Below are positions 16,951-46,303 of a stretch of 64,000 nucleotides of DNA, piece by piece. Made by a program: the position numbers and the translations under genes. Every line of letters begins with the position of its first letter. The stretch's first letter is position 1. The DNA is taken from positions 295,972 through 359,971 of the forward strand of contig JAKASU010000001.1 in the NCBI GenBank assembly GCA_021818925.1. The letters are read 5' to 3'. The notes beneath the pieces are model-generated. The model did not search any database. It worked only from the letters and a program-made list of their open reading frames with translations, and was not told where the DNA came from. The DNA is from Candidatus Micrarchaeota archaeon (GTDB lineage Archaea > Micrarchaeota > Micrarchaeia > Micrarchaeales > CABMGC01).

Positions 16951-17490
16951 ATGAATAACAATAATAGAAGGTTTGTGAAAGCGCAGAGCGCGATGGAGTA
17001 CCTGATGACCTACGGATGGGCCATACTAATCATCGCAGTGGTGCTGGGAGCGCTGTTCTCCCTCGGAGTGTTCAGCAGCAGCAACCTGCTCGGCACGGCA
17101 TGCATCGCATACTCGGGCTTCGAGTGCACGAACCCGCTCCTTCACAACGGAGTCTTTACGGCCACGATAGGCCAGTCAACAGGAACCAGCTGGACTTCTA
17201 CGAACCTGATATTCATTGGATCGGGAGGCGGCACACCCACCGAAGCCTCATTCAACGCCTTCGGAACAAACTCGATAACATGCCCGCCTGACACCGTGTC
17301 CGGAGGTCTTAGCACTGGTTCATCGACAACATTCACCACGTACAACTACCTCACGGGCGCCACGACATGCAGCGGTATGCCAACCACCCTGGGCCAGGCT
17401 GAGGCCGGGACGATCTGGGCGCAGTACAACACAGCAAGCGGAAGCGGGCTGATATCCCAGGTGGCGACGATCAACATAAAGGCAACATAA
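16951..17490 (+). CDS. archaeal type IV pilin-like protein (class III signal peptide), copy 1
   Basis: MNNNNRRFVKA|QSAMEYLMTYGWAILIIAVVLGALFSL: basic leader, KA/Q cleavage context, Glu at +5, hydrophobic helix. Ser/Thr/Gly-rich globular part. Confidence 0.8.
   Translation: MNNNNRRFVKAQSAMEYLMTYGWAILIIAVVLGALFSLGVFSSSNLLGTACIAYSGFECTNPLLHNGVFTATIGQSTGTSWTSTNLIFIGSGGGTPTEASFNAFGTNSITCPPDTVSGGLSTGSSTTFTTYNYLTGATTCSGMPTTLGQAEAGTIWAQYNTASGSGLISQVATINIKAT
16977..17090 (+). repeat. 114-nt perfect direct repeat (5' region of pilin gene, copy 1)
   Basis: gaaagcgcagagcgcgatggagtacctgatgacc...agcagcaacctgct is identical, by my base-by-base reading, to 17535-17648. Confidence 0.85.
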
Positions 17491-17511
17491 TAATTAGAAA
17501 GGGTACGAGCT

Positions 17512-18039
17512 ATGAAAACTACCTTTAAAACCAGGAAAGCGCAGAGCGCGATGGAGTACCTGATGACCTACGGATGGGCCATACTAATCATCGCAGTGGT
17601 GCTGGGAGCGCTGTTCTCCCTCGGAGTGTTCAGCAGCAGCAACCTGCTGGGAACAAGCTGCATCGCATACTCCGGATTCACCTGCACAAGCCCGCTCCTT
17701 CACAGCTCGTCATTCACAGCTACGGTAGGACAGGCAACCGGGACAACGTGGACCGCGGCAAACATACTGCTTGTAGGATATGGAGCAGGCACGCCTGCGG
17801 CTGCGGCTTTCGCAGTAGCTGGATGCTCCGACCCATTCACCAACGGCATCACCAGCGGCCAGACTGTGAACGTGATCATGACAAGCTACGCTTCCACCAC
17901 AACAGGATGCACCTCCCTGTCAACCAACTACGGAAGCGTGGGAAGCGCGTTCGCCGGGAGCCTCTGGGCCTTCTACACGGCCAGCGGAACAGCAGGCCTG
18001 ACAACGCAGCTTGCGAACCTGAACGTCAAGGCGTCATAG
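17512..18039 (+). CDS. archaeal type IV pilin-like protein (class III signal peptide), copy 2
   Basis: MKTTFKTRKA|QSAMEYLMTYGWAILIIAVVLGALFSL. The mature N-terminus is identical to copy 1, and the C-terminal part has diverged. Confidence 0.8.
   Translation: MKTTFKTRKAQSAMEYLMTYGWAILIIAVVLGALFSLGVFSSSNLLGTSCIAYSGFTCTSPLLHSSSFTATVGQATGTTWTAANILLVGYGAGTPAAAAFAVAGCSDPFTNGITSGQTVNVIMTSYASTTTGCTSLSTNYGSVGSAFAGSLWAFYTASGTAGLTTQLANLNVKAS
17535..17648 (+). repeat. 114-nt perfect direct repeat (5' region of pilin gene, copy 2)
   Basis: Identical to 16977-17090. Similarity continues downstream with mismatches. Confidence 0.85.
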
Positions 18040-19791: not shown

Positions 19792-20382
19792 CTACTTCTT
19801 CGCCGCCTCGAACCTTTTCGCCACGTCCTGCCAGTTGACTATGTGCCACCAGTTGTCTATGTACTTGGCGCGGTCCGGGCCAACGTCTATGTAGTAGGCG
19901 TGCTCCCACACGTCGAGGCCAAGTATCGGGACCTGGCCCTGCGTCACGGGGGAGTCCTGGTTGGGCGTGCTCGCAAGCGCGAGCTTTCCCTTGTCCACGA
20001 CGAGCCATTCCCAGCCTGAGCCAAATATCTTCTTCGCGCCATCGCTGAACTGAGCCTTGAACGTGTCAACGCTCCCGAAGCTCCTGGTTATCTCGTCTGC
20101 CAGGGGCCCCGAAGGCTGCTGGTCCTTCTTCGGGCTCATCATGAGCCAGAAGAGCGAGTGGTTGTAGAAGCCACCGCCGTGGTTCCTTAGCGCGCCCTTG
20201 ATGTCGTCCGGTGCGCTCGAATAAGTCTTCAGTATCTCCTCTATGCTCTTGTTCCCCCACTCGGGATGCTTCTCTATGGCAGCGTTGAGGTTGTTCGTGT
20301 AGCCGACGTGGTGCTTGTCGTGGTGCAGCTGCATTATCTTCTCGGAGATGTAGGGTTCGAGGGCATTGTACGCGTACGGCAA
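19792..20382 (-). CDS. sod: Fe/Mn superoxide dismutase
   Basis: LPYAYNALEPYISEKIMQLHHDKHH, HSLFW, LGLDVWEHAYY metal-ligand motifs. The track start is TTG, and conserved N-terminal residues continue upstream (see findings). Confidence 0.9.
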   Translation of the reverse strand: MPYAYNALEPYISEKIMQLHHDKHHVGYTNNLNAAIEKHPEWGNKSIEEILKTYSSAPDDIKGALRNHGGGFYNHSLFWLMMSPKKDQQPSGPLADEITRSFGSVDTFKAQFSDGAKKIFGSGWEWLVVDKGKLALASTPNQDSPVTQGQVPILGLDVWEHAYYIDVGPDRAKYIDNWWHIVNWQDVAKRFEAAKK

Positions 20383-20490
20383 TGCCGGTACTTCAAATTT
20401 TGCTATGTTATCACCGAGTTCTGTTAGAGCTAAAAATATTTAACACTTGGGCAGAAAAAAAGCGGACGAAGGTAATGCAGAGCAGAAAAC

Positions 20491-20497
20491 TTAAATA
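20491..20497 (+). promoter_or_regulatory. TATA-like box with purine-rich BRE-like upstream element for the small RNA
   Basis: gcAGAAAAcTTAAATActacg lies about 24-29 nt upstream of the first base of the predicted outer helix (20520). Confidence 0.45.
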
Positions 20498-20519
20498 CTA
20501 CGTGATGTAAAGAGCATTA

Positions 20520-20620
20520 GCTCGCCGGGTGGGGAATGGAACCCACCAAGGCTTTGCGACCTGTCGTTTTCAGACGACACCGCTTCCATAGCGGTTTACC
20601 CCGGCTTTGAGCTGCTTTTT
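20520..20620 (+). ncRNA. orphan structured small RNA (about 95 nt, four-way junction, tRNA-like outline but not a canonical tRNA)
   Basis: Outer helix GCUC-GCCGGG (20520-20529) pairs with CCCGGC-uuu-GAGC (20600-20612). Three internal hairpins: GGUGGG[GAAUGGAA]CCCACC, UGUCGU[UUUCAG]ACGACA, CCGC[UUCCAUA]GCGG. Flanked by a TATA-like box and a T-run terminator on the + strand. Intergenic. Confidence 0.55.
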
Positions 20621-20634
20621 CTTTTTTGTTTTTT
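20616..20634 (+). terminator. oligo-T archaeal terminator
   Basis: tttttcttttttgtttttt (T5, T6, T6) follows immediately after the closing helix of the predicted RNA. Confidence 0.55.
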
Positions 20635-20676
20635 CGGAACAACACGGGTAGATATGATACGTAAGGTTTAAATATT

Positions 20677-20706
20677 TACTTAAGTAAAAGATTATCTACT
20701 TAAGTA
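20677..20706. promoter_or_regulatory. two identical 10-bp palindromes (TACTTAAGTA) 20 bp apart, between a TATA-like box and the first island gene
   Basis: TACTTAAGTA at 20677-20686 and 20697-20706, directly downstream of TTTAAATATTT (20667-20677). ATG of the first island gene is at 20718. Confidence 0.5.
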
Positions 20707-20717
20707 GATGATTTGCT

Positions 20718-21095
20718 ATGAAGGGAAACTGTGACACAAGCGAGATCTGGTCGTTCGTAAAGAGATACGTAAAGATTGCGTGGATTCCGCTCGTGTTATT
20801 TACCGGAAAGACTTTCGCAACTGCGTTTTCGTTTGATATTGTAGGGACTCTATCTGGCGTTCAAACGCTTCTTGCACATTTAGGACCCGTCCTTAGTGCG
20901 GTATTATTCATAGTCGCGGGCATCTTCTACGCCATCGGCCAACTCTTTCCTGCTACAAAAAGAGCCAACTTCCATTCCACCTCGATAGACATACTGATAG
21001 GCGCGATAATCGTCGCGGTCCTTTCCGTGGCGTCAAATGGGCTTGCGCTGGCCTCCTCTCATCTGCTTGTGAACATCACCAATTCCTCGGTGTAG
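20718..21095 (+). CDS. VirB2/TrbC/CedA1-like small two-helix membrane protein (putative conjugative-type pilin)
   Basis: Signal-like N-terminus (IAWIPLVLFTGKTFA|TAF). The mature part of about 85 aa has two hydrophobic helices (LGPVLSAVLFIVAGIFYAIGQLF and IDILIGAIIVAVLSVASNGLAL) joined by a short basic loop PATKRANFHS. Confidence 0.5.
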   Translation: MKGNCDTSEIWSFVKRYVKIAWIPLVLFTGKTFATAFSFDIVGTLSGVQTLLAHLGPVLSAVLFIVAGIFYAIGQLFPATKRANFHSTSIDILIGAIIVAVLSVASNGLALASSHLLVNITNSSV

Positions 21096-21098
21096 CTG

Positions 21099-22100
21099 AT
21101 GAACGCCGCGCCTTTCGGTGCTTACGGGCTGAGCGTCTCGATTTTGCTTGTGAGCATAATGCTCGCAATAGGAGGTGTGGTGCTCGGTGTGGGGCACGCG
21201 CTTTCTGACAAGAAACTCAAGGAGTGGGGTAAAAACGAGATCGTGCAGTCTCTGATAAACGGCGCGCTTGTCGGTGGATTTTTGCTTCTGTTCGTCAAAG
21301 GAGGAATAATCGGCTCTTTCATAAACTCGTTAACTTTTTCAAACGGAGCTAGTTTCAGCTGCAGTTCGTTCTTGCAGTACAACTCTGCGATATGCTTCGC
21401 TTACAACTACCTCGTAGGCCCTGCACAGTTCTACTTCATGGGCGCCTATCATCCCTCAATATTGAGCACCGCATCTCTGGTCATCGCGGGGCTTGTGTCG
21501 CTATACGCGGTTCTGGGCGTGTTTAGGTTGTTTCTGAGCCCTGTGCTGGCGCAGATCCAGGGAGCCGTCCAGGTAATGGGCACCGCAGCCATCAGCGCCA
21601 CGGTGCAGGCGGCGGTTCTGTCTTTCATAGCGGTCAGCGCACTTACCATCATCCTGCCGTCGGGTTTGGTGCTGCGCACTTTCTATCCCACAAGGAAGAT
21701 CGGCAGCTTTTTGATCGCCTTGACGATCGGCATGTACATCGTGCTTCCACTCACGTATTTGATGAATGCTACAATAGTCGGGCAGTATTCCATCGTGTCC
21801 AACCAGACGGGCATTGAGACACTATCGCTCAGCTTAAACGGCATCAAGAGCAGCGCGCTATCCTATGTGAATGCAGGAACAAACAACACCGGGATTATTG
21901 CGGGACTGGAAAACATAGGGAACAGCCTTGCGGTGCAGATATCGGACCTGCTGAGCTATCTGTTCAACATAATCTCGTTCTTCATCGTTTACACATTCAT
22001 ACTTCCGGCTTTCAGCCTAATGCTTACCGGGATATCTGTAAAAGAACTTTCGGCGCTGATGGGTTCTGATTCCTTCTTCGGAAAGTTCAGCTTGCTGTGA
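21099..22100 (+). CDS. polytopic (about 7 TM) membrane protein, VirB6/CedA-like
   Basis: Multiple TM helices. The segment LPSGLVLRTFYPTRKIGSFLIALTIGMYIVLPLTYLM aligns with IPGIIFRAILPLRSIGGMLIAVALSFYFIMPMLFSVAF of the ORF at 63164-64000. Confidence 0.55.
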   Translation: MNAAPFGAYGLSVSILLVSIMLAIGGVVLGVGHALSDKKLKEWGKNEIVQSLINGALVGGFLLLFVKGGIIGSFINSLTFSNGASFSCSSFLQYNSAICFAYNYLVGPAQFYFMGAYHPSILSTASLVIAGLVSLYAVLGVFRLFLSPVLAQIQGAVQVMGTAAISATVQAAVLSFIAVSALTIILPSGLVLRTFYPTRKIGSFLIALTIGMYIVLPLTYLMNATIVGQYSIVSNQTGIETLSLSLNGIKSSALSYVNAGTNNTGIIAGLENIGNSLAVQISDLLSYLFNIISFFIVYTFILPAFSLMLTGISVKELSALMGSDSFFGKFSLL

Positions 22101-22104
22101 TCGT

Positions 22105-22836
22105 ATGCTTGATCTCGAGGCCGAAAATAAACGTTATTCCTATGCGCTCTACTCCCTCTCCGCGGTAGTGGCCATTGCTAGCCTGATCTCGGGAAATGCA
22201 TATTTTGCCGTCCTTAGCGCGATTTTACTGCTTCTGTCCGCAGTCTACTTCAATTCAGGCCACATCGTAAACAACTTCCTGATTAAGCACAACATGGTTA
22301 TCGAAACTTACAATGGCTACAGACTCAGCGAAGGGCTTTCTGCAGCAGTGAAGAGAATAGGAAACGAATATTTTGCCGTTTCCTGCAGTGTGATCACAAA
22401 TCCTTCCGAAGGGCACGATGGCGAACACATAGCCGCGCTTATTAGAAACGCAGACTGCCCGTTTGAGTTCAGCATCGGCCTGAAAAGCGTGGACAGCGGG
22501 AGGCTTCTCGACAAGCTTGAGGAGAGGAGGCGGCTAAAGGAGATACAAATAGCACGTGGCGATCAGAAGAAGTACGACAAGGTAAATGAGCTAAGACGGG
22601 AACTCGCACTGATTGAAAGCGAGATGAGAAGCGTAAGGGACGGAAAAATGCTTGCGATAGCAGTTAGGTTGAAGACGTTCGGGAGGTCTGTAAGCGAGTT
22701 CGAGGCTGCCAGGGAAGCTGCAAAGAATGCGGAGCGGATTGCGAGCGCGTTCTCAAACGCTTTGGGTTTTGAGCACGAGATACTGAAAGGCGAAAAATTG
22801 CTGGAGTTGTTGGAAATAGAACGTGAATCTACATGA
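22105..22836 (+). CDS. 2-TM anchored soluble-domain protein (VirB3/VirB4-N-like position)
   Basis: Hairpin TM (YALYSLSAVVAIASLISGNAYFAVLSAILLLLSAVYF), then a domain with CPFEFSIGLKSVDSGRLLDKLEERRRLKEIQI. This is homologous by eye to FPFRFNIISVAEDVQKYRDELEGRRGVLEVQL in 61460-62284. Confidence 0.55.
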   Translation: MLDLEAENKRYSYALYSLSAVVAIASLISGNAYFAVLSAILLLLSAVYFNSGHIVNNFLIKHNMVIETYNGYRLSEGLSAAVKRIGNEYFAVSCSVITNPSEGHDGEHIAALIRNADCPFEFSIGLKSVDSGRLLDKLEERRRLKEIQIARGDQKKYDKVNELRRELALIESEMRSVRDGKMLAIAVRLKTFGRSVSEFEAAREAAKNAERIASAFSNALGFEHEILKGEKLLELLEIEREST

Positions 22837-23894
22837 GTAGGGCACTTGCAAGCTGGGAATCCGCGTCTGACCTGATCAGGTTTCCGGTTTTTGATATCCA
22901 GAATGAAGCACAGGTATTTTCCGGGGCAGGAAAATGCGTACTTGTGGGCATGATGCACAATCTTCCATTCTTCCTCGACCTTGATGCGGCGGTAAATCCT
23001 CATGTGTTTATATGCGGCATTACTGGAAGCGGCAAGACGTACCTGATGAAGAACCTCATGCTTAAACTGGCCCTCTTCTCAGACGCCGAGATATTGCTGA
23101 TTGATTTCACGGGAGAGTATGAGGCGTTCGCAAAGACAACCTCGCTTGTGCGTTATTCAAACCTTAAGGGCGCAGGGGATGAAAAGACAAAAACTAAGCT
23201 TGCAGACGAGATACTGAATCAAGCACTCGAGAGGATGAGGCACGAAGATTTGGGTAGGAAGCGAGTGTTTGTGATGCTTGACGAAGCTTGGAAGCTTCTT
23301 GGGAGCAGCAAACCGCTGATTACGCTCCTGCGAGAAGGCCGAAAGTACGGGTACGGCTTGCTGTTCTCATCGCAACTCATAGAGGACGTAGACATAGCCA
23401 TGCTTTCGAACGTGGCCACCGTATTCGTTTTCAGACTGCAAAACAAGCAAGGGCTTAACAAATTGGCTGGAAACTATGGTCTGAGGCAGCGGCAGGTGGA
23501 GCTTATCCAGGGGTTGGGGGTGGGCAGTTGCGCAGTACTGCAAATGCAAAAGTCCGGAAAGCGAAGCTTTTTCCATATCGAAAAAGTCCACGGCATGGAA
23601 GCGGACGAAACTATCAAGCTAAAGAATGGTGCCAAAATGCAAATAGAAATCACAAGAAGAAAGTTTGAGGAGACTGTAGGAAGCGTATGCCCAAAAGATG
23701 TCGTATCTGCCGCAATTGCGATGTCTGAGCGTGAAGGATATGTGGATCTCGCTTTTCTCATAGATTTGTTTCTAAAGAACGGCACAGACAGCAGAACCGT
23801 TCTTGCCACGTTGCGAAAGTTAGGAATAGATGACGCATCTGCAGCAGAGTCTTTCGCGACAGTGCTGTCTCAGGCAGGCAAAACAAAAGTGTAG
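22833..23894 (+). CDS. VirB4/TraC-class (FtsK-HerA superfamily) ATPase, short form
   Basis: Walker A GITGSGKTYL, Walker B VFVMLDEAWKLL (the DEAW typical of VirB4), REGRKYGYGLLFSSQ. Start overlaps the upstream stop (ATGA). Confidence 0.75.
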   Translation: MSRALASWESASDLIRFPVFDIQNEAQVFSGAGKCVLVGMMHNLPFFLDLDAAVNPHVFICGITGSGKTYLMKNLMLKLALFSDAEILLIDFTGEYEAFAKTTSLVRYSNLKGAGDEKTKTKLADEILNQALERMRHEDLGRKRVFVMLDEAWKLLGSSKPLITLLREGRKYGYGLLFSSQLIEDVDIAMLSNVATVFVFRLQNKQGLNKLAGNYGLRQRQVELIQGLGVGSCAVLQMQKSGKRSFFHIEKVHGMEADETIKLKNGAKMQIEITRRKFEETVGSVCPKDVVSAAIAMSEREGYVDLAFLIDLFLKNGTDSRTVLATLRKLGIDDASAAESFATVLSQAGKTKV

Positions 23895-23897
23895 CCA

Positions 23898-24557
23898 ATG
23901 AAAGACGAAAACTATCTTTTTAGTAGAATCTGCATCGATGCCGATCTCAGGACCGGAGTCGGACATGTGAAAAAGTTGCTAAGTAATTATCCAAGCATGC
24001 ATCTGATTAAGGAAGGGACTTTGCTCTCGTATTCGATAAAGAACGATGGCGGGCCCTTTTTCACCGTTGATTTCGAACACAGCAGAATTTCAATAACCGT
24101 GCATTCGAAAGAAACTCCATCATTTTATTTGCAGGAAACCGTGCTGAGGCTGCTATCGATCTTGCAGATCGTATCGGAAAACTATGAGGTAAAGATCAGG
24201 TCATTGTATCCTTATTTGATAATGGTTTTGGCGGTGCAGCAGCTGCGTGTAACGCAATCTAAGAAACCTATAGCGGCAATCTGCATGCCGGACATTGTAC
24301 TTTCGAAGAGGCTTATCGCATTGCTTAACGAAAATACGCGCATAAATGCTGAAAACAGAAGATTACTTGCTGATCTTCGGAAGGTTTTGCTGAGAACAGT
24401 ATCTGTCTATGCCGCATCGGGTTTGAGTCTTGATGAGATTTCGTCAGAACTTGGAGTGGATAAGGCAAGAGTGATTGATGCCATTGACAGGGCTCCAGAT
24501 CTGGGCCAAAGGGTTGTGCGCACGGGGAAGGGTTCGTTTAACATTGTGAGAATTTGA
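23898..24557 (+). CDS. coiled-coil protein with C-terminal wHTH-like module
   Basis: 219 aa with C-terminal SLDEISSELGVDKARVIDAIDRAPDLG. Same size and architecture as 58493-59158 (DVGEFSKTYKVPEPRVEQILDKMVSLGFLE). Confidence 0.5.
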   Translation: MKDENYLFSRICIDADLRTGVGHVKKLLSNYPSMHLIKEGTLLSYSIKNDGGPFFTVDFEHSRISITVHSKETPSFYLQETVLRLLSILQIVSENYEVKIRSLYPYLIMVLAVQQLRVTQSKKPIAAICMPDIVLSKRLIALLNENTRINAENRRLLADLRKVLLRTVSVYAASGLSLDEISSELGVDKARVIDAIDRAPDLGQRVVRTGKGSFNIVRI

Positions 24558-25009
24558 CAAGCTTGATTGAAGAATACATTGCACAGTTGGCTCCGATACT
24601 GATAGGATTGGTGTTCTTGATGGTCATTCGATTAGCGGTGACGAAAGAGGACAGATTATTGATCAGAAGCACGACTCCGGGGATTGTGGTCGACAGCGCA
24701 GATTCACCAGAAACAGAAAAGCCTGCAAGGCATGAAATCTTTTACGATTCGCTGATTGCAGGAGGCATATTTCCCAAAAACCTGTCTATAAATGCGCTGG
24801 AAAGAACTGCTGCAAGAAGTTTGGGAGTAATCGACATCGCTAATCTGTCGAAATTTAAAAAAGAGCTCATTAGATCAGACCACAAGAAGCTTTTGGTGCA
24901 TGTTCACGACGTCACAACGCCGCTTATGCAAATACTGTCATTTGAAGGCAACTCTGGTTTCTTGCTAAGCTATCTTGCCGGATACAGGCTTGAGTTCGAG
25001 GTGGTGTAA
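24554..25009 (+). CDS. single-TM protein, unknown function
   Basis: TTG start overlapping the upstream stop, N-terminal TM (LAPILIGLVFLMVIRLAV). Contains ARSLGVIDIANLSKF, related to the LRxxG(I/V)DD mini-module (see findings). Confidence 0.45.
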   Translation: MTSLIEEYIAQLAPILIGLVFLMVIRLAVTKEDRLLIRSTTPGIVVDSADSPETEKPARHEIFYDSLIAGGIFPKNLSINALERTAARSLGVIDIANLSKFKKELIRSDHKKLLVHVHDVTTPLMQILSFEGNSGFLLSYLAGYRLEFEVV

Positions 25010-25469: not shown

Positions 25470-25489
25470 GATAGCACTAAAAATCAGAA

Positions 25490-25564
25490 TGGGCCCGGAG
25501 AGATTTGAACTCTCGACCTTCCGATTATCAGTCGGACGCTCCAACCAGGCTAAGCTACGAGCCC
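25490..25564 (-). tRNA. tRNA-Ile (anticodon GAU)
   Basis: GGGCUCG-UA-GCUU..GAGC-G-UCCGA-CUGAUAA-UCGGA-AGGUC-GAGAG-UUCAAAU-CUCUC-CGGGCCC-A. Full cloverleaf folded by hand, with no intron and no encoded CCA. Confidence 0.9.
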
Positions 25565-25601
25565 ACGCTTATCTCTCGCAGCTCAGTTTATAATTGCTTT
25601 T

Positions 25602-28111: not shown

Positions 28112-28155
28112 AAGGAGCTGCGAGCAACAGGTTTTGCTTTCTTCGCGAATAGCAG

Positions 28156-28226
28156 AGCCAGGAGAGGGAGTCGAACCCTCCTTTACCGCTCTGCAGGCGG
28201 TCGCATAGCCGATCTGCCATCCTGGC
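28156..28226 (-). tRNA. tRNA-Cys (anticodon GCA)
   Basis: GCCAGGA-UG-GCAG..AUGC-G-ACCGC-CUGCAGA-GCGGU-AAAG-GAGGG-UUCGACU-CCCUC-UCCUGGC-U. Folded by hand, 71 nt, with a G13:A22 mismatch. Confidence 0.9.
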
Positions 28227-46186: not shown

Positions 46187-46230
46187 GCTTTCGAGTGTCT
46201 TCTACAAAAGCAAGCATAAAAAAGTATGTG

Positions 46231-46303
46231 TAGCTCCAGCCAGATTCGAACTGGCGTCAGCGGGTCCAGAGCCCGCCGTCCTTGACCACTAGACGATGGA
46301 GCT
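46231..46303 (-). tRNA. tRNA-Gln (anticodon CUG)
   Basis: AGCUCCA-UC-GUCU..GGAC-G-GCGGG-CUCUGGA-CCCGC-UGAC-GCCAG-UUCGAAU-CUGGC-UGGAGCU-A. A1:U72 pair, folded by hand. Confidence 0.9.

Follow-up and report, generated by a model that had tools for sequence, protein, structure and literature searches.

What kind of gene occupies the short, strongly structured stretch of DNA upstream of sod in a metagenome-assembled genome of Candidatus Micrarchaeota? We analyzed a 64,000-nucleotide (nt) stretch of contig JAKASU010000001.1 (hereafter the window), in which this element lies on the same strand as sod, the minus strand of the window. A reading made from the sequence alone (the sequence-only reading) had taken it for an orphan plus-strand RNA with its own promoter and terminator at the boundary of a genomic island, possibly the remnant of a tRNA at an old integration site. 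We find instead that it belongs to a small family of class-II tRNA-like genes, of which it is the most degenerate copy and which at least four Micrarchaeota lineages carry at this locus. We further propose, with moderate confidence, that it is a minus-strand gene for a dispensable, non-canonical class-II tRNA-like RNA that would be cut out of its precursor by the splicing endonuclease.

Homology, strand, structure, covariation and the presence of the flanking motif described below could be established. The helices, hairpins, TATA-like box and T-runs all lie where the sequence-only reading had placed them (Table 1), and its description of a structured, cloverleaf-like and possibly tRNA-related element was right. 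The folding energies are -43.3 kcal/mol on the plus strand (z -3.99) and -42.2 kcal/mol on the minus strand (z -3.87), values that none of 200 shuffles matched on either strand. Because G20528-G20529 are common to hairpin 1 and the closing helix, these two cannot both form fully at the same time. Among 10 contigs of the same species the intergenic region is 98–100% identical and the element itself invariant, including in L008, which differs at seven nearby positions. ARAGORN with default settings and Rfam at the gathering score, both run on the window, returned its three ordinary tRNA genes (Ile, Cys and Gln) only and left the element uncalled. When the searches were relaxed, a match appeared on the minus strand. 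A permissive Rfam search retrieved tRNA-Sec (RF01852) at 20524-20605, with 28.7 bits against a threshold of 47 (E 9e-4 in a 401-nt search), and ARAGORN at 85% of its thresholds (-ps85) drew, under the label 'tRNA-?(Ser|Phe)(ga)', a tRNA of 85 nt whose anticodon loop has 6 nt. A degenerate tRNA does fit the minus strand, contrary to the claim that the stem and loop lengths suit no tRNA on either strand, and the likeness of the opposite-strand arms to D and T arms was the correct lead.

The element is not an orphan. A genome scan for L10e yielded 18 loci (16 labelled Candidatus Micrarchaeota, one labelled Candidatus Marsarchaeota, L013, and one labelled 'archaeon'), and further relatives were reached through contigs carrying sod homologues. 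In three further lineages, represented by L013, L034/L035 and L044, a homologue of the element lies upstream of sod in the same orientation as sod, with ARAGORN lengths of 88–90 nt. The copy in L013 was found by nhmmer, and the gene order around it is kept: a cluster of genes for proteins of 125, 333 and 243 amino acids (aa) and an ATPase, then the element, sod and L10e. This copy scored 37.7 bits with the Rfam tRNA model, above gathering, and was called by default ARAGORN as tRNA-Val(CAC) of 88 nt, both on the sod strand. Default ARAGORN also called tRNA-Phe(GAA) of 89 nt in L034/L035, where the Rfam tRNA-Sec score (41.3 bits) is below 47, and tRNA-Ile(UAU) of 90 nt in L044. A covariance model (R1) built from our alignment of the family (A3) gave 107–129 bits for six copies (the window at 107.3, L013, L031, L034, L035 and L044) and at most 30 bits for ordinary tRNAs. 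No additional copies were detected by nhmmer and model R1 over the 396 kb of loci compared. Two metagenome scans combined a T-arm pattern with the flanking motif described below, the patterns having been checked against known copies; the first gave no match, and the second gave six chance matches in coding DNA, none of them tRNA-like. A scan of viral contigs and BLAST searches against plasmids and phages likewise gave no match.

All four lineages share an acceptor helix of 6–7 base pairs (bp), a D arm of varying form and a 5-bp anticodon stem, and all four have a hairpin in the variable arm (V arm), with 4 bp (window and L013) or 7 bp (L034 and L044), which the sequence-only reading had overlooked. 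The class-II tRNA-like family is defined here by a cloverleaf with an extra V-arm hairpin that covaries among homologues, and the copies fit this definition. Every copy has G at discriminator position 73. In L013, L034 and L044 the T arm is canonical (GxGGG-UUCRAAU-CCCxC), the acceptor and T stems are of 7 and 5 bp (7/5) and the anticodon loops have 7 nt, reading CUCACAC (anticodon CAC), CUGAAAA (GAA) and CCUAUAA (UAU), respectively. The window copy resembles that of L034 minus one A of the anticodon loop, which reads CUGAAA (6 nt), with a changed T loop and a 3' side shorter by 1 nt. Its T loop is UUCCAUU(C) on a stem that is off register, and its acceptor and T stems hold fewer than 12 clean pairs; given the altered T loop and the shorter 3' side, the two stems cannot share the standard register. 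The window copy therefore departs from a canonical tRNA as defined by RF00005 and ARAGORN (7-bp acceptor, 5-bp T stem, 7-nt UUCRANY and anticodon loops, U33). Nor is it a tRNA-Sec, although RF01852 is the best Rfam match for both the window copy and L034: both scores are below gathering, the anticodon is not UCA, the 13-bp acceptor/T branch (9/4 in archaea) is lacking, as is an 8/5 one, and there is no 6–7-bp D stem.

Alignment A3 contains 25 named pairs (outer helix 4, central helix 4, acceptor 7, anticodon 5 and T 5). In it 95.2% of cells are paired, compared with 34–47% when the partners are slid by one to three columns, and none of 500 shuffles reached the observed values. Both sides of the pair change in 12 of the 25, so that the helices are indeed conserved and covarying in relatives.

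The minus strand is very probably the expressed one. It is favoured by the canonical T arms and tRNA calls of the relatives, a census of G-U pairs, the covarying outer helix, a TATA region upstream and a T-rich block downstream. In the census, based on hand segmentation of seven helices, we counted six G-U pairs and four mismatches in the sense (minus) direction and one and nine, respectively, in antisense; RNAalifold drew the full cloverleaf with its V arm in sense (-36.5 kcal/mol, 33 pairs), whereas the structure it gave in antisense was poorer (-34.1 kcal/mol, 28 pairs). The same evidence bears on the plus-strand RNA with its own promoter that had been proposed, which would be an independent small RNA of about 95–100 nt, starting about 26 nt past a B recognition element (BRE)/TATA-like sequence at 20484-20497, ending at the T5-T6-T6 runs and acting through its loops. 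The BRE/TATA-like sequence (AGAAAAC at 20484-20490 followed by TTAAATA at 20491-20497, centred 26 nt before 20520) belongs to a block, CAGAAAACTTAAATA, that recurs in all four lineages 18–19 nt from ATTAGYTC and resembles the promoters of the tRNA genes in the window; in every lineage the closing helix is followed by T-runs, and folding of the plus strand is as good as that of the minus. On that strand, however, the six G-U pairs turn into A-C mismatches, the T arms and tRNA calls of the relatives are on the other side, and a start near 20520 would leave out the covarying outer helix. On the minus strand the block could serve as a T-rich terminator, UAUUUAAGNUUUUC standing 18–19 nt past the flanking motif in all four lineages. 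As to action through the loops, the 6-nt match between loop 1 (AUGGAA) and loop 3 (UUCCAU) is real in the window (chance odds 0.1–1.2%), but the loops are the T and D loops on the minus strand and the complementarity shrinks to 1–3 nt in relatives, leaving a kissing interaction unsupported. We consider such a plus-strand RNA quite unlikely; given the conserved spacing of the block, some antisense transcription may nevertheless occur.

In order to understand how a minus-strand tRNA-like RNA might be made, we analyzed its flanks. They pair further out than had been noticed (on the plus strand, AGCA 20513-20516 with UGCU 20613-20616) and, together with 3-nt bulges, form a motif of the bulge-helix-bulge (BHB) type adjoining the acceptor stem, which in the window reads AGCA-GCUC-AAA ... 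GAGC-UAA-UGCU. The strict form of this motif (hBHBh'), with two 3-nt bulges on opposite strands, exactly 4 bp between them and flanking helices of at least 2 bp, is present in four of four lineages. For the outer helix, the window and L044 have AGCA/UGCU, L013 has AGUA/UACU and L034 has AAUA/UAUU; for the central helix, the window and L013 have GCUC/GAGC, L034 has GUUC/GAAC and L044 has GCUC/GAGU. Of the eight BHB pairs, those at columns 8-119, 9-118 and 12-112 covary, and another changes from G-C to G-U. Across the four lineages the flanks are better conserved than the cloverleaf body, and the ordinary tRNA genes of the window showed no BHB-like flank pairing. Compensatory changes preserve the helices and the BHB but the anticodon varies, which points to selection on a tRNA-shaped, endonuclease-processed RNA and not on a particular decoding function.

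From these features we infer transcription, cleavage, circularisation and any aminoacylation. The gene would be transcribed together with its leader and trailer, which would then pair to place a strict hBHBh' against the acceptor stem (4-bp helix, 3-nt bulge, 4-bp helix, 3-nt bulge, acceptor), and the archaeal splicing endonuclease EndA would cut in both bulges. The canonical cut in a BHB is after the second bulge nucleotide, as follows from the 37/38 position of introns and the two-fold symmetry of the motif. On this rule the predicted EndA sites are between 20607 and 20606 and between 20518 and 20517, and cleavage would free an RNA of 89 nt (20606 to 20518), made up of A(-1), the cloverleaf and GAGCUA, that is, a 6-nt 3' tail. 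RtcB could circularise this product. The EndA of Ca. Micrarchaeum, of the epsilon2 type, cuts strict as well as relaxed BHBs, and 56% of the tRNA genes of that organism are disrupted (PMC3239211), which makes the enzymatic context plausible.

According to a Haloferax EndA study and a review on permuted tRNA genes, BHB substrates comprise tRNA introns, rRNA stems, one 5' untranslated region (5'-UTR), a single mRNA and tRNAs that are permuted or split. The motif described here has the strict hBHBh' form of tRNA introns, rRNA stems, the leader-trailer of permuted tRNAs and the HVO_1309 5'-UTR intron, and it shares with rRNA processing stems and permuted pre-tRNAs its assembly from leader and trailer and a (predicted) circularisable product. 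Unlike these substrates, it brackets a complete, unpermuted tRNA-like cloverleaf at the acceptor end. A BHB around an unpermuted tRNA in this position is not described in either the Haloferax study or the review, the latter mentioning acceptor-stem circularisation of an unpermuted pre-tRNA merely as a hypothetical step towards permuted genes.

Four other interpretations of the arrangement were tried and rejected. A circularly permuted tRNA gene is at odds with the normal 5' to 3' order of the cloverleaf, and the junction loop (GAGCUAA in sense, UUAGCUC in antisense) matches neither an anticodon loop nor a D or T loop. The V arm is not a BHB intron, being just a 4–7-bp hairpin with a tetraloop and no bulges. 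Were the flanks the two halves of another tRNA and the element its intron, the spliced loop would read GCUCAAA, and leader and trailer contain nothing resembling a D or T arm. Finally, the flanks have no boxes of a C/D-box small RNA, and the AUG of a possible small open reading frame (ORF) is not conserved in L013.

Table 1 Coordinates of the element, its flanks and the candidate signals around it in the window
Feature	Position	Strand	Sequence or remark
Closing helix	20520-20529 with 20600-20612	plus	GCUC 20520-20523 and GCCGGG 20524-20529, pairing with CCCGGC 20600-20605, UUU, GAGC 20609-20612
Hairpin 1	20528-20547	plus	GGUGGG[GAAUGGAA]CCCACC
Hairpin 2	20562-20579	plus	UGUCGU[UUUCAG]ACGACA
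Hairpin 3	20580-20594	plus	CCGC[UUCCAUA]GCGG
T-runs	20616-20620, 20622-20627, 20629-20634	plus	T5, T6, T6
tRNA-like RNA body	20524..20605	minus	G1 = 20605, C72 = 20524; 6-bp acceptor helix
D arm	20579-20595	minus	part of tRNA-like body
Anticodon arm	20563-20578	minus	part of tRNA-like body
Anticodon loop	20568..20573	minus	CUGAAA; from sequence reading, alignment A3 and ARAGORN drawing
V-arm hairpin	20549-20562	minus	part of tRNA-like body
T arm	20528-20547	minus	part of tRNA-like body
Outer BHB helix, 5' strand	20613..20616	minus	AGCA; pairs with UGCU 20513-20516; 2 of 4 pairs covary perfectly (columns 8-119, 9-118)
Central 4-bp BHB helix, 5' strand	20609..20612	minus	GCUC; pairs with GAGC 20520-20523, all cells paired; C-G to U-A in L034, G-U in L044
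5' bulge	20606..20608	minus	AAA; invariant in 4 lineages; holds a predicted cut
Central BHB helix, 3' strand	20520..20523	minus	GAGC; G20523 is the discriminator-position G73
3' bulge	20517..20519	minus	UAA in three lineages, UGA in L044; holds a predicted cut
Outer BHB helix, 3' strand	20513..20516	minus	UGCU
Conserved block	20483..20497	both	minus reads UAUUUAAGUUUUCUG, T-rich candidate terminator of the tRNA-like gene; plus reads CAGAAAACTTAAATA, BRE/TATA-like
A-rich leader	20616..20640	minus	corresponds to the plus-strand T5-T6-T6 runs
TATA region	20662..20677		AAATATTTAAACC; in common with the divergent 125-aa gene; possible promoter for the minus-strand precursor, leader ~40 nt

The position of the candidate promoter agrees with a precursor of this kind. 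The TATA region is conserved in the window, L013 and L034, at 66–74 nt upstream of G1, and L044 has a different TATA-like sequence, AAATATATAAG, about 55 nt upstream. The ordinary tRNA genes of the window, like those in L013-L022, have TATA centres about 27–33 nt before +1, and the tRNA-like gene in the window has no box at that distance, which is consistent with a long leader that would need endonucleolytic removal. The spacing implies that ordinary tRNA transcripts here would be leaderless or have very short leaders, which recalls Nanoarchaeum equitans. A conserved GAAAAAG immediately 5' of the outer helix can lengthen that helix by pairing with the U-rich trailer.

We also examined what lies between the 125-aa gene and sod in genomes without the element. 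A gene for a PIN-domain (VapC-type) toxin, in most cases with VapB, is found directly upstream of sod in 11 sister loci (L011, L012, L014, L015, L029, L030, L032, L033, L036, L045 and L046), and in L037 the slot is filled by an unrelated gene. No locus has both the tRNA-like gene and the toxin gene; they occupy a variable hot spot as alternatives to each other.

Several observations weigh against an RNA excised at the BHB. Minimum free energy (MFE) structures prefer a central helix lengthened to 5–6 bp by means of the first bulge nucleotides, with AAA as the single bulge, over the two-bulge BHB; the BHB fold is nevertheless nearly isoenergetic, only 0.1–0.5 kcal/mol above the MFE, in four of five sequences, but costs 3.6 kcal/mol in L034. 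The alternative helix also has one compensatory change, at pair 9-115 (RNAalifold). With two perfect covarying pairs against one imperfect pair, covariation across the four lineages favours the BHB outer helix, a result that we regard as suggestive, and the covariation sample as a whole consists of four lineages and five distinct sequences only. The predicted cuts leave A-1 and a 3' tail and so do not by themselves yield mature tRNA ends. By eye, the fixed spacing of the BRE/TATA-like block and the T-runs suits a plus-strand unit equally well. The occupation of 11 sister slots by a PIN gene and the patchy distribution of the element mean that the RNA is dispensable. The 6-nt anticodon loop and off-register T arm of the window copy look like decay, and two of the three changes over 400 nt that separate L031 from L013 hit the T arm (GUGGG becoming GUAGG and UUCAAAU becoming UUCAAU). 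When these two copies, which are from the same species, were compared over the gene (L031 2790-2815 and L013 9180-9206), the differences within it were confined to the T arm, where a stem pair is broken and an A of the T loop lost. This suggests either relaxed constraint on tRNA-type tertiary structure or an assembly error.

Signs of decay of this kind would be expected if the element were a tRNA pseudogene, that is, an accessory class-II tRNA gene drifting with residual structure and no function at the RNA level. Such an origin would account for the failure of default ARAGORN and of Rfam at gathering score to call the window copy, for its short anticodon loop, non-canonical T loop and incompletely paired acceptor and T stems, for the two T-arm lesions in L031 and for the dispensability of the locus in many relatives. 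Yet all helices of the window copy are intact, its differences from relatives are mostly compensatory double changes, the fold retains a z of -3.9, and the 10 strains are invariant in spite of polymorphism nearby in L008. Intact helices together with an intact BHB argue against a long-dead pseudogene, and we regard this explanation as unlikely.

A gene still in use for translation is a further possibility: an active tRNA with serine-type identity that reads non-serine codons in regulated mistranslation, the BHB being its route of maturation. A long V arm and G73 are identity elements for the seryl-tRNA synthetase, SerRS (PMC7609411), and the relatives have 7-nt anticodon loops, canonical T arms and 7/5 stems. 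Moreover, the bacterial allo-tRNAs (Mukai et al. 2017) combine a V arm, G73 and wandering, diverse anticodons with frequent inactivating defects and proximity to toxin-antitoxin genes (PMC5389517). The window copy, with its 6-nt anticodon loop, damaged T arm and lack of CCA, does not look like a decoder, A14 is missing in three of the four lineages, and L044 has C33. G73 is also constrained by the BHB helix and hence cannot be read as an identity signal alone, and a gene whose anticodon varies among orthologues, and which is missing from many sister genomes, is not an essential decoder. We judge an active decoding role to be very unlikely, and the window copy in particular most likely does not decode codons. 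CCA is likewise not encoded in the ordinary genes for tRNA-Ile (25489-25565), tRNA-Gln (46230-46303) and tRNA-Cys (28155-28226) of the window or in the L013-L022 tRNAs.

By analogy, the allo-tRNAs would be the closest functional counterpart of the excised tRNA-like RNA that we favour, with formal membership failing on the stem arrangement. Allo-tRNAs and nev-tRNAs share with the Micrarchaeota family a long V arm, G73, variable non-serine anticodons, UAU among them (here GAA, CAC and UAU), and many defective-looking copies; the toxin-antitoxin association of allo-tRNAs also has its parallel in the PIN-domain gene that holds the same slot in sister Micrarchaeota. Allo-tRNAs, however, are bacterial and are defined by a 12-bp branch of 8/4 or 9/3, whereas the Micrarchaeota relatives are 7/5 and no 8/4 register pairs in L034 when examined by hand; BHB flanks are not described for allo-tRNAs. 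It is conceivable, though on balance doubtful, that the family is an archaeal counterpart of the allo-tRNAs, dispensable and hopping between loci, of serine type with V arm, G73 and shifting anticodons, excised at its BHB, unlike any described tRNA, and probably circularised, competing for the PIN-toxin slot and playing a part in the action of tRNA-targeting toxins or in stress-induced mistranslation and not in ordinary decoding.

The surroundings of the element do not bear out an island boundary or an integration scar. The supposed island (20718-25009) has a lower GC content and encodes several predicted membrane proteins without a Pfam match as well as an ATPase of 353 aa with a HerA/FtsK/VirB4-like P-loop (DUF87, AAA_10, TrwB_AAD_bind), but the cluster of 125-, 333- and 243-aa genes and the ATPase is conserved in relatives, where at least the first four island genes recur beside sod/L10e as far as the compared flanks reach. 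From its gene content, the island resembles a small apparatus for DNA or protein translocation rather than a recent insertion. No direct repeat joins 20500-20640 to the tRNA-Ile gene, and the element is a complete cloverleaf and no fragment. Upstream of the 125-aa gene, overlapping the TATA region, two tandem 20-nt repeats (20673-20712), each with the palindrome TACTTAAGTA, resemble the operator of a dimeric DNA-binding regulator; L013 and L034 conserve these repeats, L044 more loosely so.

Two observations on protein-coding genes of the window were made in passing. In sod (20382-20408, minus strand) no in-frame ATG, GTG or TTG precedes the conserved N-terminus KFE(V/L)P..LPY, and gene callers shorten the protein to 196 aa. 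An ATA stands 5–7 nt after a Shine-Dalgarno-like GGUGAU in the window and six relatives (L013 ~9318, L014 ~9313, L015 ~9027, L029 ~1262, L030 ~190 and L044 ~2427), and L034 has ATG (~2491) exactly where the other sod genes have ATA, which suggests AUA as a candidate start codon for sod in these Micrarchaeota. A link between this start codon and the UAU anticodon of L044 was considered and dropped, there being no correlation across lineages. Two neighbouring ORFs at 16951-18039, which encode 179 and 175 aa and have no Pfam match, each start with a short basic stretch ahead of a hydrophobic helix (...KAQSAMEYLMTYGWAILIIAVVL...), and these N-termini resemble archaeal class III (type IV pilin-like) signal peptides.

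Genes of this type slip past default tRNA finders and Rfam thresholds, which is a lesson for annotation; for the present genome the practical consequence is modest, as its copy is probably no decoder. If the proposed processing is correct, the element would be a natural example of an RNA that has the complete, unpermuted shape of a tRNA and is enclosed by a splicing-endonuclease motif, and would represent a new class of EndA/RtcB substrate in a phylum whose tRNA genes are already known to be heavily disrupted. V-arm tRNAs with wandering anticodons near toxin-antitoxin loci would then extend from bacteria to DPANN archaea.

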